This document shows positions 10,516-63,037 of a DNA stretch of 64,000 nucleotides, piece by piece (positions within the stretch are counted from its first letter, which is position 1; each line of letters begins with the position of its first letter). The notes under the pieces were generated by a model. The model was given only the letters and a program-made list of their open reading frames with translations. It searched no databases and was not told the origin of the DNA. Source of the stretch: Rhizaria sp. SCN 62-66 (Eukaryota); assembly GCA_001724265.1 (NCBI GenBank), contig MEDY01000038.1, positions 1 through 64,000 on the forward strand. The letters are read 5' to 3'. Position numbers and translations under genes: made by a program.

Positions 10516-11002
10516 ATGGACGGCGACAACTCTCCCCCCGTGTTGCGAGGTGTGGTTAAGTTCACGGGCGGCAAGGTGTTCCGCAACGGCAGCTTCGACG
10601 CGGACGACCTGTGGGTCGACACGGGGCTGCCGCTGGAGCCCGGGCAGCCGATGATGGCGCAGGCGACAGTGATCGACCCCAAGCCGCGCTTCTGGCAGGC
10701 CGGCCTCACCAAGGACTACGCGTCGCACCTCACCTTCGACGTCTCGGGGCTGCTCGTCGTGCCGGGCTTCATCGAGCTCCAGCTCAACGGCGCCTTCGGA
10801 GTCGACTTCAGCACGGTCCCACTCAACTAGCCGCTCTCGGCCGCCGCCGCCGCCGCGCTCGCCGCGCGCGCCGCCGCCGCGCCCGCCGCCGCGACGGCGC
10901 TGCCCGCATACAACACGTTCGACGCGGCCGCGCTCGAAGCCACGGCGGCCGCGGAGGCCGCCTCGCTGTCGCCCGAGGCGGCCGCGCAGGCGCAGGCCGA
11001 GG

Positions 11003-11034
<32 letters not shown>

Positions 11035-13017
11035 GCGGCCGACTGCCTCTTCTCGCAGGCGGCTGCCAAGCTGGACTGCGCGCGCCCGCTGGCGGCGGTG
11101 GCCGCGCAGGGCCCGCTGGAGAGCGAGTTCGCGACGAGCATCGAAGTCAAGCCGTGCTTCAAGGACGAAGACTTCGACGCCGCGGCGCCGCTCACGGTCA
11201 CCGTGCCCTGGCACCTCCGCGGCGCGCTGCGCACGCGCGCGCTCACTGGGGCTGGGGAGCTCGACGCCAGTGCAGGCAGCGATCAAGACGGCAGCAGCAG
11301 CAGCAACAGCAGCAGAAGCAGTAGCCTGCGTAGCTCCACCGGCAGCAGCTACGTCACTGGCCTCGTCCCTAGCCGCAGCGGCGACAGCGCGGCAGCGACG
11401 GCGACGAGCGTGGCCGTGGAGCACCTGCTGGCGTTCGACCCCGACCTCACGACGGTCTCGCGCAAGCTGCCGCGCTTCGGTATCACGTCCTACCTGCCCA
11501 CGGTCATCTCCTCCTTCCCGCGTGTCTACCGCGCAGTCGCCGCGCGCTTCCGCCGCTACCTTGCCGCGGTCGCGGAGCTCGAGCGCGTCGGCGATGGTGG
11601 CAGCAGCGGCAGCGGCAGCGGCGGCGTTGGCAATGGGGCGAAGCAGCCGCTGCGTCACGGCATGGCGCAGGTGCTGGGGCTACACCTCGAGGGGCCCTTC
11701 ATCTCGGTCAAGGGCGCACACGACCCCAAGGTACGTTTTCTACAGAAAACACAAAAAAGATTATCATTTCGATATATTGGCGTGTACGCGTGAAATTGTC
11801 GTCCAATATTCTATCAATAATCGAAATTATTCACTGGTTTTCGTGTCGCGTGTTTCTCACTTGACGTCCTTTGTTCCCCTTGCGCCCACTTTGGCTCGCA
11901 TAGACCCTGCACGCGCCGGGCGTGCTGCCCGCGATGGAGCTGCTGGCGACCTACGGCCGCTCGCTGCTGCCGCTAGCGCGTCTGGTGACCCTGGCCCCCG
12001 AGCTGGCGGGCTCCATCGAGGTCATCCCCCTGCTCCGCGCGGCCGGCGCCGCCGTGTCGCTGGGCCACTCCAAGACGGATCTTAAGACGGCCGTGCGCGC
12101 GCTCGACGCCGGCGCCGGGCTGGTGACGCACATGTTTAACGCCATGAGCTCGTTCCACCACCGCGACCCCGGGCTCGTGGGGTTGCTCGGCGAGGACCAC
12201 CAAGTACGCGCATATCTCGCTTGCATTACGACGTATCACGGCAATAATATCCACTTTATTAATAGTAACGGGCTTGTCATATTTTCATTCAGTTTTTCAT
12301 TTATAGAAACTCATATTGATTTATTTTTCATGATTTGTGTCCTTCTATCTGCAGGTGCCGTACTCGATCATCACCGACGGCATCCACGCGCACCCGGCCT
12401 CGGTGCGCATCGCGCACTGCGCCAACGCCGCGGGCACTGTGCTCGTCTCCGACGCCATGTGCGCCATGGGGCTCGGCGCAGGCACCTACAAGGTACGACA
12501 CCGGCCACTCTTTACCAAAGCCGCGACTCGTCACGCGCGGCAATAAGACAGTTATGACGGTATTTTTTATCTAGACTTACGAAGTCATAGTCGAATCACA
12601 ACCAATTCATTTCGTCACATTTCTCATCGGTGTCATATTCTTCTGTTTCCCCTTTCCCTTTTATTCTCTTTTATTCTCCAGCTCGGCGAGATGACGGTGA
12701 CGACGGACGACGTGCTGCACCGCGCGGTCATCGCTGGCACCGACACGCTTGCCGGCGCCATCCTCTCGCTGGACCGCTGCGTGCAGAACCTGCGCCGCTT
12801 CACACACTGCTCGCTCGAGGAGGCCGTGGCGGCGGCCACCGAGACGCCCGCCAAGGTGATCGGCGCGTTCCCGCGCAAGGGTTCGCTGGCCGTGGGCGCT
12901 GACGCAGACGTCGTGATCCTCGACCCCGTGGACCTGACTGTGCTCGCCACAGTCATCAACGGACAGGTCGTCTACGCGCGCGGGGGCGTCTTCCCGCCCG
13001 CACCCGTCCACGGCTGA
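10516..13017 (+). CDS. nagA: N-acetylglucosamine-6-phosphate deacetylase (NagA/AMDHD2); exons 10516-11730, 11904-12203, 12355-12492, 12682-13017; one in-frame TAG (10828-10830); TGA stop
   Basis: [47 protein letters not shown] and GADADVV motifs in the expected order; the frame is continuous across the TAG. Confidence 0.93.
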
Positions 13018-13041
13018 TGCCGAGGCCGGGCTGCGGCGAGA

Positions 13042-20197: not shown

Positions 20198-23100
20198 TCA
20201 CATCACGTCTTCGCCACGCGCAATGCGCTCCAGATCTGCGAGACAAGCGTCCCTCTGCGGACTGGCCTCAAACAACGCAGCCAGCAAGTCGGCAACCTCT
20301 GCGCTGGTGAGGCTCCACAACACGCCGTCCTTGGCGAGCGCGCGCACAACGCGGAGGTTGAGGTCCTCGTGCAGCAACAGCGCGACGGCGCAGAAGCGCA
20401 GCCATGGTAGCGCGCGCTGCGGCGGCGGGCCCAGCGGCGGCAGGTTCGCGGCCAGCTCCTCGTCGCTAAGCGCGCCGCCCGCCGCCGCGTTGGCCGCGCG
20501 CACCTGCCGCTGCGCGTCGCGCACCGCGCTCAGGTGGGCCTCGAGCGCAGCGAGCTCGGCGCGGCCGCAGAGCCCCGCGAGCGCGGCCCAGTCCGCGGGC
20601 GCAATGTGCGTGTGCGCGAGCAGGCGGCGGCCGGCCGAGGCGGCGACGACGTGCGCCAGCGGCGCCTGCAGCCGCGCGGGCAGCACGGCCGCGATGCCGC
20701 CCGGCGGCAGCTGCTCGGGCGGCACCTGCTGCAGCTCCGTCACCGTCTGCGCGGCGTCGGCGCCCGCGACGGCGGCCAGCGAGACGGCGGCCGTGCGCGC
20801 AAGGATCTCGGCGGCGAGGCGGAAGAGCCGCGCCGTGGCGGCCGTGGAGAGGTCGGGCGCGTCGAGCACCCAGGCCGTGAAGCGCTCGGCCACGGGCAGA
20901 GTCAGTGCGGCGGCCACGGTGAGCCCGCGGAACTGCCCGCGGTCGCCGGGGTCGCGCAGCCGCTGCCACGGGACGACGGCGGCCTCGGCGACGGCGACGG
21001 CGGACTGCACGGCGCGGGACACGGCGGCCGCAACCATCGAGACCTCGATGCCCGCCACGCCGGAGACTGAGTCGAGACGGGCCACAACGGCGGCCTTCTG
21101 CAGCCGCAGCTGCGTCTTGAGCGAGGCCAGCGCCGCGGCGCGCACCTGGCTGGCGCACGCGGCGAGCAGGGCGCCCGGGGCCGTCGGTTCCACGACGCTG
21201 GAGAACATGTCGATGTCGCCGGGGTTCGCGGTGCTAAGCGCGTGTGCAGTGGCGGCGACGAGGGCAGTCGGCACTGCGGCAGCCGCTGACGGCGCAGTTA
21301 ACTGAGGCGGGAACAAGGCCGAGGCTGGAACGAGCCACGGGACACTGAAGGGCTCAGGCTTGCGATTGTCGCTGCCAATGCTCCTCGCGCGAGATTTCTG
21401 TTGTTGCTGTCGCTCTGCCGCGTTGATATTGCGCCGGAGGTGACGGCGATTCACGATCGCACCAAGCGCCCCGCTGAGGCTATCGATCTCAACCTCGCCA
21501 TCGTCATCATCATCGTTGTTTTGGTCCTGATTGTCGGCGTTCGCTTCACCCGTGACCTTATCGTCGTCGTCATCGTGGAGGTCAACGCGGATGAGCGTAG
21601 TGCTGCCGAGCGCGGCCGCCGCGTCCATCGTGCTCTTGCTCAGCAGCAGCGCTACCGCAGCGGCGTCTAGCACCTTCGCCTGCGCGCCCACGCCCGGCGC
21701 AGCGCTCGCTGACGCCGCTGCAACAGTGGCCTTGACGGCGGCAACCGCCGCGTCCAGCGCGCTCGCCACAACGCCCGCCTGCGTGGTCAACAGGTGCGCG
21801 TCCAGATACGCCCCCGCGGCCGCAGCGGGCGCGCGCCGCCGCAGCTGGCCCGCGGGCAGCGTGGCGGCCGCGGCGGCGACAGCGCTGGCCTCGGCCCCCG
21901 CGACGGACGCCAGTGCCCACAGCGCGCAGATCGGGGGCGAGAGCAGAGAGGAGATGAGGGCGGCGCCGTCGCGGGCCTGCAGAGGTGAGCGGGACAGCAC
22001 GGCGCGCGCCGCTGCAGTCTCGGCCTCCGCGACGTTGCCGCTGACACTGCTCGCACCGGCACTCGCAGGCGCGGTTGAGACCTCAGCCTCGACTGCGGCC
22101 CTGGCGAGCGAGGCGACGGTGAGCACGAGGTCGCCGCACGCGAGCGCGCGCGTAGCGGCCAGCGCGGCCCGGTGTAGCGCGCGCGCAAGCGCCACGGCCG
22201 AGAGCGCGAGCGTGACGGGCAGCGGGTTGCCGTGCGGATCGCGCCGCGCAGAGGGGTCGTCGACCACGGAGCGCGCAAACGACAGCGTGACGGAGTAGCA
22301 CGACGCGGCCGCCGCCGACAGCGCCGCGGCGCCCAAGGGCGGGTGCGGGCCCAACCCGCTGCATGCGGCCTCCGCAGCCGCAGTGCCCGACGCATGTGCG
22401 GTGTTGATGGTCTTGCTGTTGCTGAGAGTAGCGAGCGCGGCGGGCAGCGCGGCGACGGCTGCGAGCACGCGCTGCGGCGACAGAGAGAGCAAGGCCTCGT
22501 CGCCAGTAGCGTCGTCTTCGGTGGCCGCCACCTGCGGCAGCGACAAGAGCGCTAGATACGACGCGGGAGCCGACGGCAGCGCCGCAGCAACCCAGGGAGC
22601 GACTAAGCCTGGTCCCGACTCGGGAGTACTCGCACTAGTACTCACAGTTGTCTTAGGTGTGTCGCCCGAGTTGGCAGTGCCCGCAGCGGTGGCGATGGCT
22701 CCGAGCTTCTGCGCCAACCACTGCGCAGTGCGCGCGGCCACCTCGTTGGCGTCTGCGTCCTCGTCGTTGGCGTCGCCGGCGACGGCGCAGGCTTCGGCCT
22801 CGAGCGGGAACAGCATCGGCAACGCTTCGACAGCGACTGGCTCGTCCTCCTCCTCCTCCTCCTCTTCCTCCCCGTCCGCGCCAGCAGCAGGCTTGCTGAT
22901 GCTGCTCGGAGACTGCGTGTCAGCAGTGAGGCGCAGCAGCCGCGCGGCGCGGCGCGCGGCCGGCCCCAGCGCGGCCGCAACGGCGGAGCGCAGAGTGGCC
23001 TCCGTCTTGGCGGCCCACAGTCGCCAGAAAGTCCAACCTGCCCCGGCACTCGCAGGCGCCCTAGCGCCGGCGGCTGTGACCGCGCGGTTGTCACAGAGGC

Positions 23101-25993
23101 GATTGCTGGGGAGCAGCAGAGCCGCGACGGAGCCCGCAGCCGCACGCTGCGCCGCTTCGAGCGCGGGGCCAGCAACGGCAAGCAGCGGTAGCAGCAGGTG
23201 CGGGGCAGTGTGCGGCGGCACCAAGGCCGGCGCGGCGGCGGCGGCGACGGCGGCAGTGGCCGCTTCGACCAGCCAGTGATCGGCATTGCTGCTGTCACTC
23301 TTGCTATAGGGAAGCAGCAGGTGCAGCAGCCGGTCCCAGCCCGCCGTCGCGCCCGCGGTCCACTGCAGCCAGGGCAGACGGTCAGCAGCGACGTTGCCAG
23401 CGAGGCTGTTGTTGTTGAGATACGACTCGACGCCAGGCAAACTGCCGGCAGCCACTGCCGCCGAGACGGCTGCCGCAGCCCCACCAGCACTGCCAGAGCT
23501 GAGCCTGTCGACGACGGCGCGCACCGCCGCCTCCGCCTCATCACTGTCACCGTCGGTACCGCAGTGGTCGTCGTCCTTGCCACCACTGAGCGCAGCGGCG
23601 GCCAGCGCGGCCGGCAGCGCGGTCGCGAGCGCGAGCGCGGCGGCGCGAGACGGCAGCGCGCCGAGGCCGCCCCAGCTCCGGGCGAGGGCGCATCGAGCAC
23701 GGTGTGACAGCGCGAAGGAGGGAGATGACGACTCTGAGATTGGAGACTGGAGCTGGGGCGGCAGCAGGCGCGCGGCGGCGGCGGCGGTCGCGGTCGGGTC
23801 CGCCGCCACGCGCACGGTAACGGCGCCGGACTGCGGACACGTGCGCACCGACGTGGCCCAGTGCAGAGGCGCGCGGGGGCCGGAGGGCACGGCGACCGGG
23901 GCCCCGGGGGCCACCGCGAACGCGCCGCTCGCGGTGGAGTGCAGAGACAAGTTATCGGCGACATACAACGCCCACGCGGCGCGCGCCACGCGGACTTCCT
24001 CCTCGTCTTCGTCGCCGTCAGCGTCGTCGTCTTGATCATCGTCGTTGCCGCCGTTGTCGCAGAGCAGCGACGGCTCGCGCAGCAGCGTCGCGGCGACGGC
24101 GGCGTCCGTCTCGCTCACGCGCGCCGACTGCAGCGACAGTGCGCTCGGCGCGCGCACGACTACGGTGGCGGCGGCGGCGGCGACGACGGCGTCGCGGCTC
24201 CGCGCGCCCACGGGCGTGTGCGTGCGGGCTGTCAGAGTCGACAGCGCAATGACGCCGTTAGACACGCCATCAGCAGCGGAGGTTGCTGAGTTCACAGCGA
24301 CCGCTTCGGGCCCGGCGCCAGTGCCTGCGGCCGCGGTGGCGAGCGCGCGCGCCAGCGGGGCGGCAACCGTGGCCGCCAACGCCGCGGCGAGGTCGCTGCG
24401 GAGCGCGTCTAGGTGCCCACACTCGCCCGCACTTACACTCGCGTCGGCAGCAGCGTCGGCAGCAGCAGCTGGGGCAGCCGCTACCGCATTCGCGTTGCGG
24501 CAGTGGCACTGGTGCAGCGCCCGGAGCCAGTCCGCGGCGGCCGTCAGCGCCGCCGTGCTCACGGTCACCTCGAGCGCGCGCCCCGCCGCGACGGCCAGTC
24601 CCGGGCACGCGCGCGCGAGGAGGCGCCGCACGGCGCAGGCGGACGCACTGGCCGGGGTCGAGGCCGCGCAAGACAGCGACTGCTACAACGACGGCGGCAG
24701 CGGTAGCGGGAGCCCGGGGCCCAGGACGGCGCCGGCGGCGGCTGCAGGGCATGCTACAGGGCGCGCTGCTGAGCGCGCTGCGGGGGCAGCAGGCGAGTCA
24801 ACGCCCTCAGCAGCAGCGGCGGCGGCGGCGGCGGCGGCGGCCGCGGAGCCGCTGTGGAGCGAAGTCACTTCAGTCGCCCAGCGGGGCGCGGCAGCAACGG
24901 CGGTGTTGGCGGACAACGGCACTGCACCAATGAGCGCGATGCCACTGTGGCGGTGAGCAGCGTGACCGTGGGCAGAGGCCGCGAGGTGCCCGTAGCTGGC
25001 GGTGAGGCCGCCCACGGTCACCCCCAGCCGCTCCCGCTCCTGCCCGCGCTCGCAGTCACGTGTACAGTCCCCCGCGGCGGCTGCAGCGGCTGCAGTGGCA
25101 GTGGCACTTGCAGTGGACGCCGCAGAGAGCCACACGGCGTGCGCGCGCAACCCCCAGCGCAGGGCGAAGGCGCGCACGGCCAGCGGCACCTGAGCGCCCG
25201 TCGCCGCCGCCGCGGTGCGCCACAGTCGCAAAACCGTCTCGGACAGCGCGCCGCGCGGCTCTGCGCCGCCCCCCTGGATGCCGGCGTGAGCGGCCGCGGC
25301 CGCGGCAGCGTTGACGGGCTGAGGCAGCAGGCCGAGCGCCTTCATGAGCACGCGGAGCCTCGCGCTGGCCTCGACGACTGCCGCAACGGCCGTCGCGAGT
25401 GCTTCCGTCGCCTGCGCCTCCGCGGCAGCATCATCCTCGGCCGACACTGTCGTCACCGCGGCGCCGGCCGCAGCGGCCGCGGCGACGCCCTCCGCCGCCG
25501 CGGCGAGCAGGCGCGCGCACACGGCGGCGGCGCGAGCGCCCGCCAGCCCGTCCGCGGCGGTCGCGATCGAGACGGAGAAGGCCTGGTGCTGCGCCTCGAC
25601 CGCGGCGGCGCGCGCAAGCGGCGCGGGCTGGTCAGGGCGCTGCGCCGAGGGCATCGTGGCAAGTCGCGTCAGCGCGGTGGCCGAGGCGGCGGCGGCGGCG
25701 GCGGCCGCGGTAAGGGGCCGCATGGTGGGTGCGATTGCGGGCTTCGCGGGAGCAGGGGCGGTCAGTGCAGGCAGAGATGCCGCAAGCGCGGTCTCAAGCT
25801 CGGCCAGGCGGGCCGAGAGGGCGTCCGAGGAGGCCCATTGCGCGTCGGGGTCGGCGAGGGACGCTGACGGCGACGACGGTGATGTGGGAGTGGCACGAGA
25901 AGCAGGCGAGGCTGGCGCGCGAGAGGATGCAGCACACCAGGACGCAAGCGGCGCGGGAAGTGGAAGCGGCGCGGGCGGGGATGCTGTTGCCAT
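20198..25993 (-). CDS. ZW10/Dsl1-like tethering protein, extremely Ala-rich, about 1930 codons, apparently intronless; one in-frame TAG (24685-24683); TGA stop
   Basis: C-terminus 'WLRFCAVALLL...LTSAEVADLLAALFEASPQRDACLADL' resembles the ZW10 C-terminal motif; ORFs 26014-24683 and 24631-20198 share a frame and are separated only by one TAG. Confidence 0.65.
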
Positions 25994-26542
25994 GGGGATG
26001 TTAGGCAGGATCAATTAATCTAGGGTCAGAAAGGAGGGCTGGGGAGACGATGGGAAAGAGGAGACGTAGAGCTGGTGTCAGCAGAGGAAGTCACGCGAAG
26101 AAAGGGCGCCGGGGAATAGCGAGGATCGACGCCTTTCAAAAGAATATTTCAAATTCACAACTAATAGTAAAATTGGTATCATAAGCACTAAAAATCAGAA
26201 GTAATGACGCTCAATTGGAGTCTATGCTGCGGAGATCTGAAGTGACTTGGGCGGGTGCCCAGTCGACCACAACGCAACGGCAGCCTCATCAAGCTGCGGC
26301 ACCTTGCTGCGAGGCCCGTCAACGTGCATGGATTGCGCCTACTTCCCGTCGATCAGCTCCATGTAGCGTAGCTTCACAGATTATAGATGTTGTATTTGGT
26401 ATAATATTATTTCCATACATTGTGAGTCGCTGTTCTTATCTCACATGCCCCACTCTTTCCCTGCGCACCTGCACCCACTCGCCGCACATCTCACCACCCT
26501 TCCCTGACGCCGCCCGCGCCCCGCCCTTTACTCACAGCAGCT

Positions 26543-29012: not shown

Positions 29013-29488
29013 TCCGACTGGGACTATAATATTGGGTCCTTAAAGAACTTATGTATACCTATCTCTCTGTTCACCAACAGAATAAATGACGATCAGGCAA
29101 TTCCACACGAGCAACGTTTTATTTCGGGACGAGACACAACGGGCGGCGGCAAAGTTCGCGAAAAAGAAAGTAATTTTGGCGAGGTGACCGTGAGCGCCCT
29201 TAGGGCTTGTTGGGGGTCGAAATCGAAGGAGAGCTCAAACTTTTTTGTTTCCTTCGTACCGCACCTGGAGCGCTGCCGTTGCATTCGCTAGTTATTTGTT
29301 TGAGCTTTCATTGCCTTATATTTACTTGCCATTGATCGCCACCGACATTTGTCCTCAGGAGTGGTGTGTATTTCTCTTTTCAAAGCTGTCCTCACGTTCC
29401 TGTTCCTGTCTGACTCCTTGCCCGTTTGTCTCACTCCTTTGCCCTGCTCGCCCGGGTCGTTTCGTATTGTCGCCGTTGATAGAAAGCA

Positions 29489-36454: not shown

Positions 36455-36495
<41 letters not shown>

Positions 36496-46259: not shown

Positions 46260-49200
46260 ATGCCACTGACTGAGATGCGCATGGCCAAGCTACGCCGCGA
46301 CTAGTAGACCCCTGAGCCCGTGATCTACGAGGCCGACAAGGGCGTCGAGCTTCCCTTGCATCGCGTGTGGCTTCTATGCTGTTTCATGGCTCTAGGCGGT
46401 TTTCAAGTTGGTCTCGTACGTTCTCTTGCTTTGTTCTCGCACTTCTGACTTTTTAGTCCCACGCGGCACAAACTTACAGAAAATAGTATGTACTCACACG
46501 TATGTAAGTCTATCCCTACATTGTTTTCCCCCACAACAGTCTCTAGGTTTGTTTAATGGCGTGCAGCTGAACAACAGTTTCCTGCGTGACTTTTGCATCA
46601 ACGATAGCGCTTACAACGGAGGCTACGGCTCACCTGCCGCTTGTGACGCCTCAGTCAAGCTTAGTGACCAGCCCTCCGCCTATGTTCTCTTTAAGTCCCT
46701 TGTTTCCGCGCTCCTCTCGATTGGCTGCGCGCTTGGCGCGATGATTCTGGCGCCCCCCGTAGCCGACAAGCTCGGCCGCTGCCGCACTATCTCACTCGGC
46801 GCCTTCATCTCCCTCGTCGGCCTTGCGTTTACAGTCTCCGCACACTCCCGCGCCGCGCTGCTGGCGGGCCGCGCCGTGGAGGGTTTTGGCCTGGGTGTCG
46901 TCGCCTTCGCGTGCCCCATCTACATCGCGGAGATCGCGCCCCCCGCGCACCGCGGCCGCATGGGCTCGCTCATGCAAATGGCCTGCGTGCTGGGCCTCGC
47001 CGTTGCGCTCGCGCTCTCTCTCACGCCGCTTGGCTGGCGGCTGGTGCTGGGCGCCACGGCCATCCCGGCGGTGCTGTTGCTGTGTGGGACGTGGCTCATC
47101 CCGGACTCGGCGCCGCTCGCACTGGCGCGGCACCAACGATGGGAAGCAGCGGCCACGCGCGCGGCCGCCGCCGAGGCGACCGTCGCGCTGGCCCAAGCTG
47201 CGGTGGATGCGGAGGCTAGCGCTGCAGCCGCGACGGCCGCAACAGTCGCCGCCGTCGCAACAGGAGAAGCATGGCAAGCAGGCGGTGTGAAGGGTCTTTC
47301 AACATCGACGGATGCCTTTGGTACTGGTGCTGACAACACTGCTGCTGCTGGCGTAGGCGGCATCAATTTCGGCGAGTGTGACCAGGCAGCAGTCGTTGAC
47401 CGGGCTCTAAGGCAGGCCGCTGGTGCAAGGCGGGACGCGGCAAAGGCTGCCGTCGCGCGCGCAAAGCAAGGACTTGAGCCTATACATCCAAACGTGGCAC
47501 AGCGCGTGCAACAACAACGTTAGCAACAGCAGCAGCAGCGCGGCTGCGTTGAGTGTCACAGGCTCGGTTTGCGCCAAGATCGCCATCGCATGGGTGACGG
47601 GCTACTCGACGAAGACGAGGAGCAAGGAGGCTTCGGCAGCAGCAGTAGCTCTAGCATTGGCATTAGCAGTGATGCGCACGCTACTCCACGCGCTGCCGGC
47701 ATGCACAGCACCGATCACAGTGATTTGCTGCGCACTCACAGTGCTCCGCGTGACATCACGAGCGCGAGCAGCGCCGTGTGCCACTGCGGAGGGCAGCCAG
47801 CCCACTATCACGCGAGTCAAGACAATGCTGCGATGAACAACGTGGATAACACTGGATCTACCGCTGCTGGGTTTTGCGCAGCCCACCATCACCTGGCTCA
47901 AAGCTACAGCGCGCTGCGTCCTCTCGCAAGCAATATCACTGACGCGCAGGACCGTATACGCTTTGCTGCCGCTCACGATCACGGACACTACCCCTGTTAG
48001 CCTGCAACGGCGGCCGCGTTTGCTAGAGAGGCCGCCGTGGCCAAGGCCGAGGCGGCAGCCACGGTGGCGGAGCCGGCGGACGAGGGCGCGGTGGCGAGGG
48101 CGACCATGTGGAGTGGGCTTGAGTTCGCGCCGTCGGCCCCGACAGAAGAGCAGTTGCGCGTGCTGACCGGAGAGGAAATCGGCGGGGTGTCGCCGTACTC
48201 GGAGCTGGAGTCCTAGCCGGAGTCGCAGTCGAACTCGGGCTCAACCTCGGAGACAGAGGCGACTGAGTCAGAGTCGGACAAAGAGAGTGGTTCCAGCAAG
48301 AAAAAGGTGCCGATGGCCACGGACGGGAAAGGGAACGGCAGCCGTGCAACCGTTGGAGATGCACATGCACCCGCTGTCACAGCAACTTCAGCTAAAGCGC
48401 CTGCAGCAACTGTTGCAAGGCCCGTAACGAGTGCTATCGTGCCCACAATCTCCGTGACGGCGCCTGCAGTCAGTAGTGCTGGCGCCCAGAGTCATTATGC
48501 GAGCAGTCACGAAGGCAAGTACGACGACATTGATGATGATGTGCAAAACAAGATGAAGAACAAGAGCGTTCTCTCTGGAGCACGTCCAACCGGCAGCGGG
48601 GGCGCTAACGCAAGTGTTCCCGGCAGCAGTCTCAGCACTCAGGGGTCCACTCTTAGTACGTATGCTGCGGAGGCCAGGGGGAAGAAGCAGCAACAACGAC
48701 AGCAGGATAAGACTGCTCATGATCACGCAGGCACAGACACTGTTACAACAACGACGACAGCGGAGCCCACAGCAGCAGACTTAACTCAGTCGTTGCCGCG
48801 AGCGTTCACGGTCGCAAAGCGCGACAACACAAGTGCAAACAACGCGGCCAGCACACAGATTGCAGCGTCCGCGGCTGGCCCATCTCCTAATGCAGACGCA
48901 GATAAATCCGCGAGGAAGCTTGTTTCAGATGCTGTTGCCACTACAGACACAGTTGATGCCAGCGCCTCCGTCACTGCTGGCATGGGTAGCGCCGCAGATG
49001 GCGCTGGCACTGGCACCGCAGATGGCGCTGTGCTGTCTATGACGAAAAGTGAGCCGCCGACTCTATGCGGTCCTACCCAGTCAGCCTCGTCGCCAGCAGC
49101 GTCAAGAACTCCGCCACCGCTGTCATCGTCGTCATCGTCGCTGACACCGGTACAAGCGGACCGTAACACGACTGGCACAAGCGCATACGCAGGTGCGCCC

Positions 49201-50608
49201 GTGTCAGCGGCTGCTCTCGCAGCGACCACTGCCGCAACGGCGTCCGCGCATGCGGACGCGGAAATCAACGCCACAAAGGGTGACGCAAGCGCAACTCCAG
49301 CGGACACTGTCACGGACACAGAAGTTGATGCGCACACAGCTGCAGACGCGAGCGGCGCGGCGACGAAGCGGAAGAGTAGGACGAAGTCAAAGCGCAAGAC
49401 TCCGCCGTTGCTGCTCCCGGTTGCGGCGCCACTGATTGCTGCAGCTCGCCGCAGCCGAAGTCATAGTCGCAGTCGCGACAAGAGCCATGATCACTCGCAC
49501 GGACACAGCCGCAACCATAGTCACAACGCCGCCGTCGCTGGTTCCGCTGCTGCCATCACAGACCGGCCCGGCTCCGGGACGCTGCTGCTGCAGATTCTGC
49601 GCTCAGAACCGCTGCGCCGGCGACTGATTGTTGCATGCTTCCTGCAGTGGCTGCAGCAGCTGACCGGCATCAATGCGTTTATGGCATATTCCGCGACGAT
49701 ATTCGAGGATGCAGGCGTGTCATCGTCTCTGCTTGCTGCGACAATTCTCATGATTCTAAACATCATCGGGACTATTGCAGGCATCTCGCTCATTGACCGT
49801 CTGGGCCGCAAAGTGCTGCTTTCGACCGGTTCTGTCGCGATGACGGTCGCCCTGGTCACGGCTGCGGCGATGCTCGTGGCTGCGGGCGGCAAGGGCGTCG
49901 CGGGCTCGGCAGGCGTCGCAGTCGTCGTCATGTGCTCGCTGTTTATCTTCGCGTTTGCGATTGGCTGGGGGTACGTTTGCCATACTTGATTGTAGCATCT
50001 TATGCGAAACATGTATCTTGACGAATCTACGCGACACCGAGGTCGCGTCATCACTAGTGTCACTAATTTTATGACTCGATTTGAACGCGGTGACTCACCA
50101 TCAAAGTTATATTATGCACTTGGATTGTTCATAAACTTATAAAACGCGTAGCCCCGTGCCGTGGGTAATCCCAAGCGAGATCTTCCCGCAGCGCTACCGC
50201 GCCGTGGGTGTGACGACTGCAATCGCGAACCAGTGGGTCGCGTCATGCGTCGTCATCTTCACGACGCCGCTGCTGATTGCCGCGCTCGGCATCGGCGCCG
50301 TGCTCTTCATCTACGCCGCGCTGTCGCTGCTCGGGCTCGCGTTCGTGCTGCTGCTGGTGCCAGAGACCAACGGCGTAGGCATCGACACGCCCGAGATGGA
50401 CGCGCTGTTCAACAAGAAGCGGCGGCTATACCACCAGAGCAGCGAGAGCAGCAAAGAGACGCCGCTGGCGCTGGCGTATAACGCGGGCGCGGAGAGCGAA
50501 GGCGAAGATGGGCAGGCGGAGTTGAGGGATCTGCGAAATGCAGAGATTGAGCTTGAGCTCGAGGATAAGGAGGCTGATGCGGCTGCGGCTGGCGTGCGAG
50601 CGCGATGA
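46260..50608 (+). CDS. MFS sugar porter (about 1347 aa) with a giant central loop; exons 46260-46415, 46540-49970, 50152-50608; five in-frame TAGs; TGA stop
   Basis: TM1 ALGGFQVGL/SLG, ADKLGR, PIYIAEIAPPAHRG, QQLTGINA, IDRLGRK, GWGPVPW, SEIFP and PETNG motifs. Confidence 0.92.
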
Positions 50609-51218: not shown

Positions 51219-53779
51219 ATGGGACCGCCCCCGCGTCACTCCACCTTTCCATGGGGCTCGCTTCCGCGTCGTCTCCTCTTGTCTTGCGCGTTTTTCTTTG
51301 CGCTCTCACTCGTTTCGCTGACTTTCGCCCCCGAGACTACTACAGCGCTCGCCGCCCCCACCCGAGGCAACGCCAAGCCCAGCGCTGGCAGCGGCGGCCG
51401 CGGCGGCGGCAAGGCGGGCGCGAAGCCCGCGGCGGCGTCGAAGCCGAAGGACTACTACAAGATTCTGGGCGTGGGCAAGAACTTCAACGAGAAGCAGCTT
51501 AAGAAGGCCTACCGCAAGCTGTCCCTCAAATACCACCCCGACAAGAACCCGGATGACCCTGACGCGGCCGAGAAGTTCATCGAGGTCTCCAACGCCTACG
51601 AGGTGCTTTCGGACCCGCAGAAGCGCGCCGTGTACGACCAGTACGGCGAGGAGGGCCTCAAGCCCGGCGGCGGCGGCGGCGGCGGCCCCGGAGGCCAGGC
51701 TGCGCACGGCCAACCTGGCGGCGGCGCGGGAGGGTTCCACTTTAACTTCGGCGGCGGCGGCGGCGGTGGCAGCGGCGGCTTCCAGGACCCGTTCGACCTG
51801 TTTGCGCAGATGTTTGGCGGTGGTATGGGCGGCATGGGCGGCATGCGCGGCGGCAGGGCCGGCGCGCGCGCCGGCGCCGGTGGCCGTGCTGGCGGTACGT
51901 TTACTCTCACGATATCCTGTCTATCTCGTCACTTTTCCCCGTAAATTTTGATTATAAGGACTATTTGTTTTATTAATGCTATTATTGGCGTTGTTGTAAA
52001 GTATTGTCTCACGAAACATTTAATCTCATGGATATATCTTATCTTGTGTTTTCTCCCCATTCAGGCCAGCCCCAGCAGCAGCAGCAGGAGCAGAGCCTGT
52101 ACGCTGGCGCGCACCCGAACCTGTCCGAGCTGACTGCGCAGTCCTGGCCGCTGCCGTCGCCGGGCCACCCGCGCGAGGAGTCGCAGGCCGACAAGGACGC
52201 CATCTGGGTGGTGGAGTTTTACGCCCCCTGGTGCGGCCACTGCAAAAAGCTCGCGCCTGAGTTCAAACAGGCCGCCAAGGAGCTCAAGGGCATCGTCAAG
52301 TTCGCCGCCGTAAACTGCGCCAACGAAGAGGAGCTCTGCGGCCGCTTCGGCGTCACCGGCTACCCTGTTATCAAACTGTTCCCGTTTAACCGGCATGAGT
52401 CCCCCGAGGACTACAACGGTCGGCGCACCGGCGAGGCCATCGCCAAGTGGGCCACGGGCCACGTGCCTAACTACATCACGACGGTCCCGCTCGTCAACGC
52501 CCAGGCCAGCGCCGGCGTGCTGACGGCCAGCGCGGCCGCCAGCGAGGTGCTCGCCGCGGTGCGCGCGACGGCACTGCGCAAGCCTTTCCTCCCGCACGTC
52601 GTCTTCTTCCTGCAGCACGGCAAGAAGCCGCTCGTGTCGCCTGCGCTCATGGCCATCGCCAAGGGCATGCGCCAGCAGTACCGCTTCGTCGCCGTTGAGG
52701 CACCCGCGCCCGAGGCGTTTACCGCGCCCGAGCCCAAGGACGGCGATTCCGCTGCCGATTCCGGCGCTGGCGCTGGCGCTGGGTCTGAGCTGCCAGTGAG
52801 CAAGGAGGCCGCGGCGTGGATTGCCCTGGCGCGCGAGTACGGGCTCCTGACGGTGCACGCGCACGAGAGCCCCGCCGTCGTGGCCGCCGCGGCCGCCACC
52901 ATGGCCGCCGGTGCCGCGCGGCTGTCGGTCCGCGCCGGCGCCTCGGCCGACGCGCCCGGAACGATCACGCTGCCGCTGCCGATCAAGAGCGCGTTCAACG
53001 CCAAGACCGTCTCTGACTTCCTCAAGCGCTCGCACACGTCTCTCAAGTCCCAAGGGGCTTATAGCAGTGACTTCGCGGCCCAGGTGCTTGCGCCGCGCGC
53101 GACGGCCGTGAGCGAGGGCGACCGGGCGCAGGCCGTGCTGCAGTCGCAGACCCCCGGGTACCACCCCGTGTTCGTGCTCTGCGAGGACGCCGCCGCCGCG
53201 CTCAAGACGACACACGCAACCACGAGTTCCACCGCTGCGGGCGCCGCGGGAGCCAAGGCCAAGGCCGGGGCGGGCAAGCCTGCTTCTGCAAGCGCGAGTC
53301 CCGCGGCCGCGGCTGCTACAGCTGTGCACGACATCGCGGCGGCCTTCACCGAGATGCAGGTGAGCGCCGTCCCGGTCGGCAGCCCCGCGTTCGGCGCGCT
53401 GGTCGCCGTCGCCGACGCCGACCTGCGCGCGCACCTGGCCGCGCTGCAGGCCAAGTGCCAGGCGCAGCAGGCCGCGCAGGCCGCCGCCAGGACCAAGGGC
53501 CCGGCCGCCGTGGTCGTCGCGGTCAACGGCAAGCGGCGCCGGTTCGCCGCGCTGTCCGCGCTGAGCGACGAGGACGCGGGCGCGGAGGCCTGGGGCGCGG
53601 CGGACGAGACTGCGAGCGGAGCGGGCGCCCCCATCAGCTTCCCCTTGAGCACCGCGGAGTGGGTTGCCGGCCCAGCCAAGGGATTCCTGGAGGGACTCAG
53701 CGGCGGGGTTGTGCGCTCCAAGCCCTACAGCAAGGGCGCCGACAAGGCGCGGGCTGCGGAAGAGAAGGATGAGCTGTGA
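51219..53779 (+). CDS. ER-luminal DnaJ plus thioredoxin domain protein (ERdj3A/DNAJC10-16-like); exons 51219-51894 and 52065-53779; TGA stop
   Basis: Signal-like hydrophobic stretch, DYYKILGV...YHPDKN J-domain, G/F region, [11 protein letters not shown]-terminal KDEL. Confidence 0.92.
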
Positions 53780-54338: not shown

Positions 54339-54899
54339 ATGCAGCGGTTTGCTCGTTTCGCCAAGTCGCTCGCCACTGTGGCTCCCCGCGTGTCTGTTGC
54401 TGGCTTCGCTGCGCCCGTGTCCACGGCCGCCGCGCCTGCGCGCTCCTTCTCTCTGTTCTACAACCCCCCGCCGCAGGAGACGCACTGCAAGGAGGTCGTC
54501 GCCAAGCAGGCCGCCGCCGCGCGCCACACCCCGCTCGACCACGTACGTTTAATTCACTCCCGACTACACGCCAACACGGGCTACTTCCACACGCATGCAC
54601 ACTGTTCTCGTTGCAAACACTCTCTTTTAAATCCTTCGCTCACTTTTCGCCCTCTTTGTATATGTTGCTTCCCCTTGCTCTCTGCCACCCTACTCTTCCC
54701 ACAGCAAAATAAGACTTCGATGGAGTACATCGCCGAGGTGCCGGTGATTGACGTGGACGGCGTCACCGCCATCTGCGACGGCGGCGACACCTTTGGCGGC
54801 CACCCGCGCGTCTTCATGCAGCTCAACAACTCCCAGGGCAAGCCCGCCACCTGCAAGTACTGCGGCCTCCGCTACCAGATGAAGAAGCACCACCACTAA
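54339..54899 (+). CDS. NDUFS6: Complex I 13-kDa zinc-finger subunit; exons 54339-54542 and 54705-54899; TAA stop
   Basis: IAEVPVI...CDGG....GHPRVF...CKYCGLRY zf-CHCC motif; mitochondrial presequence. Confidence 0.93.
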   Translation: MQRFARFAKSLATVAPRVSVAGFAAPVSTAAAPARSFSLFYNPPPQETHCKEVVAKQAAAARHTPLDHVRLIHSRLHANTGYFHTHAHCSRCKHSLLNPSLTFRPLCICCFPLLSATLLFPQQNKTSMEYIAEVPVIDVDGVTAICDGGDTFGGHPRVFMQLNNSQGKPATCKYCGLRYQMKKHHH

Positions 54900-57768: not shown

Positions 57769-58303
57769 GCGGCTTAGCCGTGATTGCGATGTATACGCAA
57801 ACATGCTTCGGGGACTTGCGGTGCTGTTTGTCAACAGTTTGCGCCTCGAGTAACAGTCGCAAGGCCATAAATTATGTAAATGCTGTATTTAATGTGATAG
57901 ATAGTGCATATTTGAAATAATCGTTTGACATTATAATAAAACCCATTAAGATTTTTGTCTAACGCATTGATAGTGCCACCATAAAAATCCTTGAGTCTAC
58001 ATGTGTGCATTTGTTCGATTTTGAGGACGAACAGCTTGCTATGGCTTTGTGGCGAGGAGGCAACCCCAACGGTCATGGCCGATTTCGACATTAGCCCAGT
58101 TGATCAACTGATCGTGAAATTGACTGTACGCGTTATAAATATAAATGTTTAGATGTAAACATTTCATAATTTTTTTTGGATTTCAAAATTGTTTTGTTTT
58201 CCCCCTCAGCGCTCGACTCTAGGCAGCACACGGACGAACCCGCTTCGCGCGCCCTATCTTCTCCCCGCGCCTGGCTCCCAGCGCCGCCCCTGCGCCTCGA
58301 CAC

Positions 58304-61300
58304 ATGTCACACCTGTACCCACCGGCGCGTCTGTCTGGCCCGCCTACATCTGCCGCGGCCCCAGGCACGACGTCTGCGTTCCCGGCGCCGTCACCGCGCT
58401 CCCCGCGGCCCGCCCGGCCCATGACCGCGGCTCCCCACGCCTTCGTGGTTACGCCGCGCCGCACGGCCAATCCCACTACTTCTGGATCTACCCCCGTGCG
58501 TGGGCCTGCCACAAGTGCTACAGACACCTTTGCGCCCGCCGGAGCTCCGTTCCCGGCTCAGCTTCGCGCCGCCCCAGTCCAGGACTGTCAGCCGCAACCG
58601 GCGCTGTACCACTCACACTCGCTGCCTGAGTCCCAGCCTCAGTCTCAGTTGCAGCAGCCGGAGCAGTGGCAGCCGCAGCCGCAGACCAAGTCGGAGTCGT
58701 ATTATTACAACAACAGCCGCCGCGGCCTCGCCCCCACGAGCAGCAGCGCGAATGCACACGCGAGCGAGAGTGCTGATAGTCGGCACAGCAGCGACTGGGG
58801 CTGGGGACGGCTGCCGCAGCGAACGCATCAACAGCATCAACAGCAACAGCAACAACAACAGCATGACTCCCAGTCAAGCGCACACGCACCGTCGCAGGTA
58901 CAGCAGCCGAAGGGGTCGCCCTCCCACCTCGACTACTACAAGTGGTCGAAGCCCGGGCAGCAGCAGCAGCTACAGCAGCAGCAGCAGCAGCAGCCGCGCC
59001 GTGCGTCACTTGATCAACAACAGCAACAACAGCAACTGCGGCCTCTTCGCTCGCAACATCTGCAGCAGCCGTCACAGCCTCCACCGCAGCCGGAGTCGCA
59101 GTCTCGGTGGCAGCTGGTAGCGGGCGGCCGCGGCAAGCCGTCGAGTCGCTTCGTTGATGAGGGCTCTCTCTCGAGTCGGTACTATCACCCAAACAGGTAC
59201 GACGGCAGCGGCCGCGGTGGCGGCGACGTGAGTCACAGCTACACCAACAGCAGCGGCAGGGGCAGCTCGAATTTGACTCGGCACACCGCCAGTGGCCAAG
59301 GACTGGCGCCACAGTCGTCAACGCAGCACCAGTCGCTCGTGCACTCGCAATCGCCCTCTCGGCTACAGACGCACCCACAAGCACAACCGCGGCCGCGGTC
59401 ACAACCGCAACAGCAGCAGCGGCTGCCGCAGCCGCCGTGCACGGGCATCGTGCCGTTTCCGTCTCCAACCGCGCCCGCCCCGGTTTTCCCCCACAGCTCA
59501 GTTTACAGCCCCGGCGACAGCGGCAACGCGCCCGCTGCAAACGCGCTCACGCCTAGCGTCGACTACAGCAGCGCCGCGCTCGCTGCCGCCCCCGCTGCCG
59601 GCGAGCAGCCCGTGGTGACCCCCGAGCTTGCGCTGCTGCTGGCCGCCCGCAAGCCCTCGCGCGCGCGCCTCCGCGTCCAGCTGCAGCGGCTGCGCAACAT
59701 GCTCTACGCCGAGGCCGCGTCCGTGCCGCAGGCCGCGGCGGCCGCGGCGGCGGCCCTGGCCCTGCTCGAGGCGGCGTGGGCGAAGGACGCGGTGCCGCTG
59801 CTGCGGGGAGGCGCGGCCGCGGAGCACGCTGCGCTGGTCACCAAGGCCCATGTGGCGAAGCAACAACAAGACAGTCGGCAGCAGTAGCCGCAAGAACTGC
59901 AGCTACAGCAACACGGGAGGCGCGGCGCCAGCGGCAGTAGCCTGGAGAGCTCTATGTACGACACTGACCGTGACGCCGACTCGAAGGACCTCGGTGGGCT
60001 AGCGGGCACCAGCGCCGGCGCAGTGAACGCAAGCACCGACGTCCCTGTGCCTGGGAGTGTGGCGGGCCGGTCGCTGACCGACGTGATGCGCAACAAAGTG
60101 GTCACCATCCCTCAGATGCAGAACGCTGACTCGTTCGCGCGGATCAACAACAGCTCAAGCACTGGCGGCAGCCCAGGCGCGACCACCAGTGACATCGTTG
60201 TCAAGGGCGAGGACAAGAATGCGCTGTCGTCGATTTTTTCGGCCCTGGACAGCACCGCGGCGCTGCAGCGCGCCGCCAGCATGCACTCGCGCCATCTGGC
60301 GCTCTCGCCCGCCGCCGCAGCGGCCGCGGCGGCCGCGGCGGGCGGCGCGGCGGTGGCCGCGCTCGAGGCGGCGCTCGTGCGCGCGCGCGTGACCGCGACG
60401 ACGGGCGCCTGGGGCAAGGCGCTGCGTGCGCTGCCCGCCGTCGCCGGCGCGCACGCGCAGTGGCTCCAGGCCGAGCGCGCGCGCTGCGAGGCCGAGGTCG
60501 CGGCGGCGAGGCAGCGCATGCTGGCGGCGCAGCAGAGGGCCAAGGGGTCGCTTGAGCTGGTTGCAAGGAAGGCGAAGACCAATGAAGCTATCTCAGCCGC
60601 TGATGAGGCAAATAAGAACCATAGCGTCTCTAATGCCAGCGATATTGTTTCATGTGACCGCGGCTCGAGCCGCAGCAGCAACGGCCGTCTCGGCTACGGC
60701 AACGCTGACCGGTTTGACCGGACCGTGCAGAGCGACCGTGAGCGCAGCGGGCTAGCCACGTTGCTGGCCGCCGACAGCGACCGGGAGCGCGGGGCCGCGG
60801 CGCGCGCCGACGCCGAGGCCGCGGCCGCGACGCTGCGCGCGTCGCTCGAGGGCTTCCGGGCGGCGCAGCGCGAGGCGGCGGCCGCGGCCGACCTCGAGAC
60901 GGGCTCCAAGTTCTTCAACATCAGCGACAACGACAACAAGCCTGCTCCTCAAACCGCGATGGGTGCCAACAAGATGTCGAAGTCGAATAAGGTCAACGCC
61001 AACGGTGCCGTCAAGCGCACCGTCGCGGCGGACGCTGCTGTGGATACAGTAACCGCCCTCGTCGACCGTCTCACTCAGCCCCGCCTCACACCGAGCGCAG
61101 ACAACTCTAAGTACTCCCTTACCGACCCGGCGTCTTACTTCGACGCCGCCTCGGCTCCCGACCCCGAGATGTGTCTGTTGCTGTCGCAGGTCATCGACCT
61201 GCAGGCGCGCCGCGCGCTGCGCCAGGCCCAACACCGTCGCGCGCGCCTCGCGCTGGCGCAGCACCGAGCTACCGCCGCGCTCGCCGCGCGCCGCAGGGGC

Positions 61301-63037
61301 GAGGCTGCCGTCCGCTCTATCCGCGCCGCCGCCGACGCAGAGGCGCTCGCGCAGCGCGCCGCGGCGGCGCGGGAGCGGCGCGAGGCGCTCGCGCTGGCGG
61401 CGGCGCAGGCCCGCGAGATGGTCGCGGCCTACGCGCGGCAGGGGCAGGCGATGCAGAGCCACATGCACCAGGCCTCGGCCGCCGTTAACGGCTGCGTTAC
61501 CAGCAGTGAACAGCTCGCTTCAGCTGACGCTAGCGCATTAGCGCTTACTCAGCAGCATCCGTCAGCGCTCGAGGCCGGCGCGCTGGGCGTGGCGGTACGC
61601 GCGCTCGAGTCGGAGCTGGCGGCCGCGGACGCCGCGGTGCGCGCGGCCCGGCTGCAGATCGCGGCCAAGCGGCGCGCGTTGCACCGCGGGAAGCTGCGCG
61701 CGTCTGCGCTGGCGCGGCGTGAGCGGGAGTATCAGACAGCGCTGCAACAGTGGGCGCGGTTCCGCGCGGTCACACTGGGCGGCGCCGAGCGCGCCACTGC
61801 GGCCGCAGCGGCGCGGCTGCGGCGCGCGCTGTGGGAAGGCACCGTGATCGAAGGCGAGATCCGGCGCGTGCGCGGGGAGGGCGCGGAGCTGGAACAGGTG
61901 TTGGCGCGCGCCGCGGCCGAGCTGGCGCGCGCTAGGGGCGAGCGCGAAGGGGCCGTGCAGGATCGGGTGGGGAAGCTGGTCGAGGGAATGATGGCGGCGG
62001 CCGAGAGGATGGGCGGGGAGCCGCTGCCGAGCTACACTGGCAGTGATGTCAGCAGCGTGAATGACAGCTGCACCGGCGGTGGCGATGATGAGGTCGAAGA
62101 GAACTATGACCAAGATGAGTTCGAAAACGACGACGGTGGCGATGATGATGACTATGAGGGCGACAGCTTCGTTGACCTTGACGCTGATGTGAACGAAGGG
62201 GACTATCTGGACGAAGACGAGGGCGATTTTGACTGCGAGGGTGACTGGGATGATTATACCTCCGATCAAGGCGATGCCATTGACAACACTGACAATAGCG
62301 ATGACATTAACGACGTGAATCAAGTTGACGCTGATGCGGACGGCTACGATGACGATGCGCTTGAGGACGGCGCGTTGACCCCGCACACCAAGCTGGCCGC
62401 GTCTTATCACCCCCACACTTTTTCTCGGAACAGTAACAACGCCGCCCTTAGCGCTGCAACTGCAACGGGCGGCCTCGATGCCGACTGCTCTCTGCTGGCT
62501 GCCGTGCCGCCCCCGTTGCCCGGCACGGCCGGCGCGCCCTCCCCGTTCGCAGCCCGCCGTAGCGCGTCCAACACAGCGAGCACTGCGAGTGTTTACAGCC
62601 AGTCAGCCCAGAGTCATAACAGCGACGGCTCGTACAAGAGTGACCAGGAGCAACAACAACAACATCAGCAGCAAAGCAACGGTGCAGATGAGAGCGTGGA
62701 CGTCAGCGTTGAGGTCAGTGTTGATGCAAGCGGCGACAACGCCAACGCAAATACCCACCATCACGGCAACCCGTTGCTACAGCCTAGCATCAACATTGGC
62801 GCTGATATCGACGCCGGCGACGCCGAGTTCGAGTCCGACGCCGGCTCTGCGCGCCGCTCGCTGCTGCTGTCTCCACTGCACGCGCCGCCGCTGTCGCAGC
62901 AGCACTTGTACAACGACGGCGTCAACAACACGCTCGATAGCGCGGTGGGGCTGCTGGTTCTCGGAGCTGACAGCGGCCGGGGCAGTGGCAGCGAGGTCGG
63001 AGACAACGCGCGCAACCCGCTCGTGTTCAATTTCTAA
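58304..63037 (+). CDS. Large hypothetical protein (Gln-rich N-terminus, Ala/Arg coiled coils, acidic C-terminus), about 1577 aa; one in-frame TAG (59885-59887); TAA stop
   Basis: ORFs 58304-59887 and 59954-63037 share a frame with a stop-free, GC-rich linker; no family recognised. Confidence 0.7.

Follow-up and report, generated by a model that had tools for sequence, protein, structure and literature searches.

Contig MEDY01000038.1 raises the question of whether UAG is read as an amino acid in the nuclear genes of the eukaryote from which the contig comes. In its first 64,000 nucleotides (the window, i.e. the whole stretch of DNA that was analysed), six genes carry TAG triplets within their reading frames. 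UAG is very probably a sense codon in this organism, with UAA and UGA as the only stops. This was the core claim of a preliminary description of the DNA and it holds up: the sequence flanking the TAGs is coding, the TAGs are not explained by introns, and the same TAGs occur in independent assemblies and in contigs from RNA libraries. On sequence grounds, what appears decisive is the anchoring of the reading frames by homology, together with an absence of TAA and TGA that is specific to these frames.

In-frame TAG codons

An approximate coding sequence set of 32 exon-like segments (13,326 codons) contains 11 in-frame TAGs, and none further, in seven segments of six genes. All 11 TAGs of the preliminary description were recovered in frame at their positions. 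In the text, a minus-strand TAG is named by its first base as read on the minus strand. The TAG-bearing genes and their TAGs are as follows.

10516-13017, plus strand: NagA-like (N-acetylglucosamine-6-phosphate deacetylase) gene, containing a long Ala-rich insert and ending in TGA
10828-10830, plus strand: TAG in the NagA-like gene, nine codons past the conserved GAFGVDFS motif
20198-26014, minus strand: large Ala-rich open reading frame (ORF) of 1,938 codons (one TAG read through), no Pfam family, ending in TGA
24683-24685, minus strand: TAG in the Ala-rich gene, joining ORFs of 443 and 1,494 codons
32442-32444, plus strand: TAG in a 432-codon ORF, at codon 8 from the sole nearby ATG (32421)
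42981-45314, minus strand: STAND/P-loop NTPase gene of 777 codons, with a coiled-coil-like N-terminal part, ending in TGA
44967-44969, minus strand: TAG at NTPase codon 116, also present in JGI contig L001; E or D aligned in relatives
44595-44597, minus strand: TAG at NTPase codon 240, also present in JGI contig L001
46260-50608, plus strand: sugar porter (MFS) gene, Sugar_tr family, ending in TGA
46302-46307, plus strand: tandem TAG TAG, codons 15-16 from the ATG at 46260, upstream of the first transmembrane segment (TM1)
47521-47523, plus strand: TAG in a polyglutamine (polyQ) tract of the sugar porter loop (QQQR-TAG-QQQQQ), covered by record 10 of X4
47998-48000, plus strand: TAG in the sugar porter loop, in a cDNA-library contig (X5 record 18)
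48214-48216, plus strand: TAG in the sugar porter loop, in the local repeat GAG TCC TAG / GAG TCG CAG, in a polyA RNA contig (X10 record 2)
58304-63037, plus strand: large Q/A-rich ORF, no Pfam family, ending in TAA
59885-59887, plus strand: TAG in the Q/A-rich ORF (RQQ-TAG-PQELQLQQ), joining stop-free stretches of 554 and 1,049 codons

The TAG-bearing frames contain no TAA or TGA and no frameshift, as had been proposed, while TAA/TGA number 2-58 in each of the five alternative frames there; the exception is one antisense frame of the ORF at 32.4 kb, which has none. That the sequence is coding on both sides of the TAGs is shown by flanking homology or Pfam domains in the NagA-like, sugar porter and NTPase genes; for the remaining TAG genes it was judged from the long open frames. 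Other TAGs seen on TAG read-through fall in introns or leaders. In the polycystin-like channel gene, for example, an AT-rich intron follows the GTACGT donor at 6564. Read in frame with the preceding exon, this intron has three TAGs (6583-6744, plus strand) and no TAA or TGA, which makes the gene look like a single 1,267-codon ORF under TAG read-through; these TAGs are taken as intronic because the following sequence lies in another frame, and the preliminary description does not count them.

The NagA-like protein has an Amidohydro_1 match in its last exon, and a GTACGT donor lies at 11731. Its metagenomic relative P0124 (625 aa, 45% identity) is colinear with it on both sides of TAG 10828, with Ala opposite the TAG in a variable loop. 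In a codon-usage model trained on the TAG-free genes, the flanks of this TAG score 42.9 and 33.1. The insert of ∼200 codons (10850-11450) is also present, as coding sequence, in P0124. A scan of genome contigs with the NagA alignment gave 42 loci, all 42 in bacterial genomes or metagenome-assembled genomes.

The sugar porter matches Sugar_tr (E = 7e-62) in two stretches, corresponding to the N- and C-terminal halves, and in the last exon. The N-half stretch precedes the three loop TAGs, while the C-half stretch and the last exon come after them. Between the halves is an open loop of ∼810 codons rich in Ala, Ser, Thr and Gln (47158-49587), which has no TAA or TGA in frame, compared with 11-28 in each other frame (P(0) ≤ 1.7e-5). 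Reading through TAG joins stretches of 375, 158, 71 and 590 codons into an ORF of 1,221 aa (46324-49989). Further upstream, there is no ATG between the tandem TAGs and TM1 other than one within TM1; the only plausible ATG is at 46260. The gene has introns at 46416-46539 and after 49970, and the junction of exons 1 and 2 is seen in spliced contigs (46415>46540). The long, low-complexity inserts within conserved proteins, in the sugar porter (47158-49587, plus strand) and in NagA (10850-11450, plus strand), are a feature of the window.

The NTPase matches nSTAND_NTPase5 below the Pfam cut-off only. With TAG read through, its ORF extends over 822 aa (42981-45449, minus strand) and joins 158, 123 and 537 codons. 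The 332 codons between the ATG and the first Met beyond the second TAG contain no TAA or TGA, against counts of 7 and 25 for the two alternative sense frames, and the relative P0138 (709 aa) crosses TAG 44597 into the NTPase domain. Public protein databases contain this NTPase only in fragments: P0130 corresponds to residues 1-115 and stops exactly at the first TAG, P0132 to residues 140-239 and P0129 to residues 631-777. NTPase relatives on metagenome contigs of 146-203 kb are partly short fragments too (P0131, P0136 and P0133), and there are hints that related organisms may be mis-called at TAG likewise. A metagenome scan with the NTPase found no relatives: the two loci that it returned are both fragments of this organism, at 100% identity.

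For the two large ORFs lacking a family, frame openness suggests a coding function. The frame around TAG 24685 has no TAA or TGA, compared with 10-33 in the other frames, and that around TAG 59885 has none, compared with 15-58. With TAG read through, the Q/A-rich ORF spans 1,630 aa (58145-63037) and includes two TAGs, one of which precedes the likely ATG. For the labels "ZW10-like" and "MED4-like", previously attached to the Ala-rich ORF and the ORF at 32.4 kb, no Pfam match was obtained at E ≤ 0.01.

Assembly errors, introns and RNA evidence

One rival explanation keeps the standard code: the TAGs would stem from assembly errors, lie in odd introns or untranslated regions, or mark recent pseudogenes, with the long frames arising by chance at high GC content. 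This explanation is very improbable. Against assembly errors, run X4, which comes from a different study and year, covers seven of the TAGs and shows them unchanged; it matches 43597-46800 with no differences and 47205-48925 with two, the one among those listed being at 48677. The JGI contig L001 likewise has both TAGs of the NTPase gene.

Introns of this organism have a recognizable form. Two were validated by spliced contigs, and the donor sequence recurs in the window.

46416-46539, plus strand: spliceosomal intron of the sugar porter gene, 124 nt, GTACGT...ACAG, GC 0.43; spliced joints in X5 and X6
54543-54704, plus strand: spliceosomal intron of the zf-CHCC (NDUFS6-like) gene, 162 nt, GTACGT...ACAG; joints in X6 and X10
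6564, 11731, 17364, 18796, 46416, 49971, 51895, 54543, 55962 and 56478, plus strand: GTACGT sites noted

The two validated introns have a GC content of 0.43-0.49. The GTACGT donor is uniform, with 19 sites on the plus strand, at least 10 of them at inferred exon ends, and it could act as a binning signature for contigs of this organism. No intron signals occur near the TAGs: there is no GTACGT donor within 600 nt upstream of any of the 11, and no AT-rich GT..TAG intron candidate around them. Tiny GT..TAG introns (15 or 30 nt) were considered at 10828 and 48214, and were rejected at 48214 because the RNA contig is colinear, and at 10828 because P0124 retains the residues.

Two TAGs are crossed by contigs from RNA libraries. 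A cDNA-library contig of X5 (47784-48145) passes TAG 47998, and a polyA RNA contig of X10 (48177-48469) passes TAG 48214, both colinear with the window and with no differences. Two of the 11 TAGs are therefore seen unspliced and unedited, in libraries that splice true introns. The read comparison covered a 20-kb stretch, with TAGs 10828, 24685 and 32442 outside it. Contigs of X5 and X6 at TAG 47521 stop 21 letters beyond it, and a spliced contig at 46301 begins one letter ahead of TAG 46302; neither case was counted as bridging. No RNA pieces over 44597, 44969 or 59885 are among the matches listed. Contig data would miss rare transcript forms. The TAGs are genuine bases, and are neither spliced out nor edited where RNA contigs allowed a check.

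Gene ends

If UAG is sense, it should not terminate genes. The preliminary description counted 21 gene ends (11 TAA, 10 TGA and no TAG); the count was revised to 20 ends checked, 10 TAA and 10 TGA, and the absence of TAG ends stood. Two of the 20 ORFs checked are without family support (28236-29039, minus strand, and 29480-30454, plus strand). Of the 20 genes, 14 lack any in-frame TAG, and every one of these has TAA or TGA as its terminator. The chance of this is P = 0.044 if TAG made up 20% of stops and P = 0.007 at 30%, with a range of 0.007-0.10 depending on the share assumed. UAA and UGA are kept as terminators, and neither occurs in frame within the homology-anchored frames. Two ends are bona fide terminators by their position behind recognizable C-termini.

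42466-42468, plus strand: TAA stop right behind the C-terminal AKL of the cytochrome-b5/acyl-CoA dehydrogenase gene
53777-53779, plus strand: TGA stop right behind the C-terminal KDEL of the DnaJ-thioredoxin gene

The first of these genes (40419-42468, plus strand) encodes an acyl-CoA dehydrogenase fused to a cytochrome-b5 domain, and its C-terminal AKL, followed by TAA, resembles a peroxisomal PTS1 signal.

Weighing the case for a sense codon

Several observations weigh against a sense UAG. None of the 11 TAGs lies inside a Pfam-matched stretch, and the 2,279 codons of such stretches contain no TAG. Nine of the 11 have at least one flank that scores about zero or negative in the codon-usage model; codon bias at the TAG flanks is weak, and the support at these nine is provided by open frames and not by codon bias. 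TAG 32442 is the weakest case, for which an upstream exon, another start or a 5' leader is possible, and TAGs 46302/46305 could in principle also be part of a 5' leader. RNA contigs bridge just two of the 11 TAGs under a 31-letter rule, and X5 and X6 were flagged "probably DNA" by the read comparison, yet both carry spliced joints. The tally of stops is partly circular, since TAA and TGA were themselves used to delimit the ORFs, and under the standard code the six TAG genes would count as TAG-terminated; its non-circular part is the ends of the 14 TAG-free genes, which is a small sample.

Tests across all frames are also less clear-cut. When stops flanked by 100 or more open codons are counted in all six frames, the result is TGA 15, TAG 12 and TAA 6; this does not discriminate in a GC-rich contig, where long spurious ORFs are common. 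The codon-model test at a threshold of 5 gives TAG 7, TGA 2 and TAA 0, with the TAG matches including intron and antisense sites; codon-usage tests are low in power because most TAG-bearing regions are of low complexity with weak codon bias. In addition, 71% of nonsense codons derived by transition would be TAG at this codon usage, giving P = 0.022 for 11 of 11, and the pattern of "only TAG, never TAA or TGA" is less striking for this reason. The long spurious ORFs, the low power of the codon model, the possible 5' leaders and the transition model are the points in favour of the standard code. What stands against it, besides the independent assemblies, the two unspliced TAGs and the absence of intron signals, is the homology on both sides of TAGs and the finding that no TAA, TGA or frameshift occurs over 332-1,938 codons past the first TAG, a property that decaying pseudogenes would lose.

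The amino acid encoded by UAG

UAG had been described as "probably Gln". This is weakly supported by the polyQ contexts, the local repeat and one homologue, while no TAG lies at a conserved column and Leu is possible. Provided that UAG is sense, it probably encodes Gln; Leu is unlikely, as is any other residue. The aligned residues are A at TAG 10828, E or D at TAG 44969, and Q in the closest relative (P0136) and R, A, W and A in four others at TAG 44597. No conserved block contains a TAG.

Context favours Gln. Two of the 11 TAGs lie within polyQ tracts (47521 and 59885). A likelihood based on the Gln count among six neighbours favours Gln over Leu by ∼12.6:1, resting on these two of the 11 sites, and the likelihoods of other residues relative to Gln are 0.28 for Trp, 0.08 for Leu, 0.04 for Tyr, 0.034 for Glu and 0.013 for Ser. 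To be set against this, the nine non-polyQ sites slightly favour Leu over Gln in the neighbour model, and a polyQ context may record the mutational origin of a TAG from CAG and not its decoding. The local repeat GAG TCC TAG / GAG TCG CAG sets TAG against CAG. The base that follows TAG resembles that following CAG, CTG, TTG and TCG, and is unlike that following GAG, TAC and TGG. Gln is the commonest outcome in published reassignments, according to the available portions of a 2024 PLoS Genet paper and of abstracts.

It is possible, with less weight than Gln, that UAG is sense and stands for Leu (as in the sainouroid rhizarian exLh and in one phyllopharyngean ciliate) or for Glu, Ser, Tyr, Lys or Trp. 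This alternative is about which residue is inserted, and it falls within the reading of UAG as sense. The contexts SL-X-QSL, KD-X-LLRKL and RRL-X-YIR are Leu-friendly, as are the nine sites and the base after CTG and TTG codons mentioned above; the neighbouring Gln count argues for Gln.

The decoder of UAG would be a tRNA with the anticodon CUA, because UAA stays a stop. Panek et al. (2017) give CUA as the sole anticodon able to read UAG without also reading UAA; it is a single step away from the anticodons of tRNA-Gln(CUG) and tRNA-Leu(CAA). Such a tRNA(CUA) would most likely arise from tRNA-Gln(CUG) by one anticodon change, and an eRF1 with weakened recognition of UAG (of its third-position G) would accompany it.

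Rarity, sequence context and ambiguous decoding

UAG is rare in the window. It makes up 11 of the 13,326 codons (∼0.08%), or 1.9% of CAA, CAG and TAG together, and occurs in none of the 6,994 codons of the TAG-free, mostly conserved genes. The TAG sites lie in regions of lower GC3 (GC content at third codon positions), with a median of 0.69 compared with 0.85 (±40 codons, p = 0.012), although sites in the same gene are not independent. The rarity of UAG, and its confinement to weakly constrained regions of low codon bias, agree with a reassignment that is recent or with a codon that is decoded inefficiently.

The base that follows an in-frame TAG is C in seven cases, T in three, A in one and G in none, whereas the 20 TAA and TGA stops are followed by G in 13 cases, T in four, A in two and C in one. 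A purine thus follows one of 11 TAGs compared with 15 of 20 true stops (Fisher p = 0.0006). Purines follow 38% of CAG codons, relative to which the deficit after TAG is marginal (p = 0.04), and C is the next base in 46-49% of CAG and CTG codons. The bias after TAG may be a trace of continuing competition with release factor, as for a young sense codon; part of it is explained by preferences for the neighbouring residue.

In eukaryotes, termination is leakiest where a C follows the stop codon. The bias after TAG bears on another explanation, in which UAG is ambiguous: eRF1 would still recognize UAG, read-through would be efficient at weak contexts, and the TAGs would be tolerated leaky stops at an intermediate stage. 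We consider this improbable. The pyrimidine after 10 of 11 in-frame TAGs, set against the purine after real stops, and the confinement of the rare TAGs to low-GC3 regions speak for it. Opposed to it, the C bias is by itself accounted for by the bases that follow Gln, Leu and Ser codons, and TAG terminates none of the 14 TAG-free genes. The sugar porter would also need five successive read-throughs, and the NagA-like and NTPase genes would need them upstream of their catalytic domains; with ordinary leakiness, almost no full-length protein would be made.

Related phenomena are described in the available portions of several papers. In Condylostoma, karyorelicts and Blastocrithidia (UAA), the same codon is both translated and terminating. 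These ambiguous codes have in common with the present case a stop codon translated inside genes and a possible context effect, but TAG ends are 0 of 20 here. tRNA-Gln is a known readthrough agent (PMC13192750, available part). Programmed readthrough resembles the present case in the C that follows UAG, but extends a complete protein past its stop, whereas the TAGs of the present case, as many as five in a gene, precede essential domains. The TAGs are not single leaky stops at the end of a complete protein: they lie upstream of catalytic or transport domains, with up to five per gene.

With UAG read as sense, a more specific scenario can be proposed only tentatively: an independent and young UAG reassignment in an unsampled, aerobic, GC-rich lineage, at an early stage at which tRNA(CUA) would still compete with eRF1. 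If true, it would show in nature a code change under way by the ambiguous-intermediate route.

Affinity of the organism and known UAG codes

The affinity of the organism bears on the choice between Gln and Leu. Its mitochondrial EF-Tu has metagenomic relatives at 77-87% identity, and the best named match is Guttulinopsis vulgaris (70% identity, 533 bits), compared with at most 506 bits for the best bacterial match, in a search that scored the 8,000 candidates with the most words in common with the query. Guttulinopsis belongs to the sainouroid group, home of the known rhizarian with UAG = Leu, and an affinity to sainouroid Rhizaria may be considered a weak lead from this one protein. The lead matters because exLh, in which UAG is Leu, is a relative of Guttulinopsis, and it favours Leu for this reason. 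The TrpRS, by comparison, gives no rhizarian signal: its best named matches (57-64%) are scattered among Acanthamoeba, plants (grasses), Pterocystis, Hemimastix, Pyxidicula, Paulinella and others. According to Panek et al. (2017), no sequenced organism is more closely related to exLh than G. vulgaris, which itself most likely keeps the standard code; this also argues against Leu. The ESM Atlas returned generic sortilin clusters only.

The organism is neither ciliate-like nor fornicate-like. Its GC content and GTACGT introns of 120-160 nt do not fit ciliates, and genes for complex I subunits do not fit an anaerobic fornicate. A code with UAG as Gln and the other assignments unchanged is NCBI table 15. 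The 2024 PLoS Genet paper, in the part available, describes such UAG-only stop-to-Gln codes in Iotanema spirale (Fornicata), Protocruzia tuzeti and two phyllopharyngean ciliate lineages. In these codes, as here, UAG is sense, UAA and UGA are stops and UAG is a minor codon, and the code would be the same if the residue is Gln. The host here differs from these lineages in being GC-rich and intron-bearing, with complex I genes and a wastewater habitat, and UAG is rarer (1.9%, compared with ∼8% of Gln codons in Iotanema according to the available text of Panek et al. 2017), with none in conserved blocks.

The rhizarian exLh (Sainouroidea) is, like the present organism, a non-ciliate with UAG as sense and only UAA and UGA as stops. 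In the material available for it, 384 UAGs occur in 71 genes, 82 of 86 UAGs at hyperconserved positions correspond to Leu, and the stops are 56 UAA and 15 UGA. In the window, UAG is not frequent at conserved Leu positions as it is in exLh (11 of 13,326 codons, none in conserved blocks), and the context mildly favours Gln; this difference further weakens the case for Leu.

The meanings of UAG and UAA are also decoupled in the green alga Scotinosphaera, with UAG = Ser, and in the ciliate Oligohymenophorea sp. PL0344, with UAA = Lys and UAG = Glu (2024 PLoS Genet paper and a 2023 paper, available parts). These cases resemble the present one in the decoupling and differ in residues and lineages, Ser and Glu fitting the contexts here poorly. 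A literature search, in a limited library from which supplements were excluded, brought up no eukaryote of wastewater or sludge that is described as reading UAG as sense. A code in which UAG alone of the stops is sense is thus already known in a few protists, and the present case adds one. This reassignment is possibly independent of the others, as the preliminary description suggested, and possibly still at an unusually early stage.

Host setting and gene content of the window

The window contains ordinary eukaryotic nuclear genes split by short AT-rich introns, as judged by Pfam and translation, and its GC content is 0.51-0.71 in 4-kb windows. The best explanation of the contig is nuclear DNA from an uncultured, intron-bearing, GC-rich eukaryote of wastewater and bioreactor communities. 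The same DNA occurs in bioreactor, wastewater, activated-sludge and microbial-fuel-cell metagenome runs from seven studies (15 of 17 rows among the matches listed), the DNA runs X1-X4 contain the contig in full, and the organism has been found repeatedly in wastewater reactors over a span of at least a decade. The genes identified are as follows.

Window genes (1): RPL19, mitochondrial EF-Tu, polycystin-like channel, CI-B8/NDUFA2-like, NagA-like deacetylase
Window genes (2): sortilin/Vps10 protein, TrpRS, RRM protein, cytochrome-b5/acyl-CoA dehydrogenase fusion, STAND-type NTPase
Window genes (3): sugar porter, DnaJ-thioredoxin with KDEL end, zf-CHCC (NDUFS6-like), CDP-alcohol phosphatidyltransferase, DIM1-like methylase

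The left edge of the window carries a partial RPL19 (1-481, minus strand), and near the right edge is the end of the DIM1-like rRNA dimethylase gene (63466-63774, minus strand; stop TAA). The EF-Tu protein is found on five database contigs, the longest of 176,181 nt, and public assemblies therefore contain more of this chromosome. No tRNA or other RNA families and no rRNA were found in the 64-kb window, and the eRF1 gene is not within it. ARAGORN, with introns allowed, made two calls only, with "introns" of 278 nt and 584 nt, and these were judged implausible.

Significance

To our knowledge, nuclear codes that split UAG from UAA were unknown before 2017, and they can still be counted on two hands. 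The known splits comprise one rhizarian, one fornicate, one green alga and a few ciliates (2024 PLoS Genet paper, available part). Another such code, in a eukaryote that is not a ciliate and is rich in introns and in GC, would be an independent data point on how code changes start, especially if UAG is rare and context-biased. Standard gene callers truncate proteins of this organism at TAG, and public collections already contain such fragments (e.g. P0130), so that eukaryotic bins from wastewater may be mis-annotated. Since the organism recurs across seven studies, it should be feasible to obtain samples in which to test tRNA, eRF1, ribosome occupancy (Ribo-seq) and the metaproteome.

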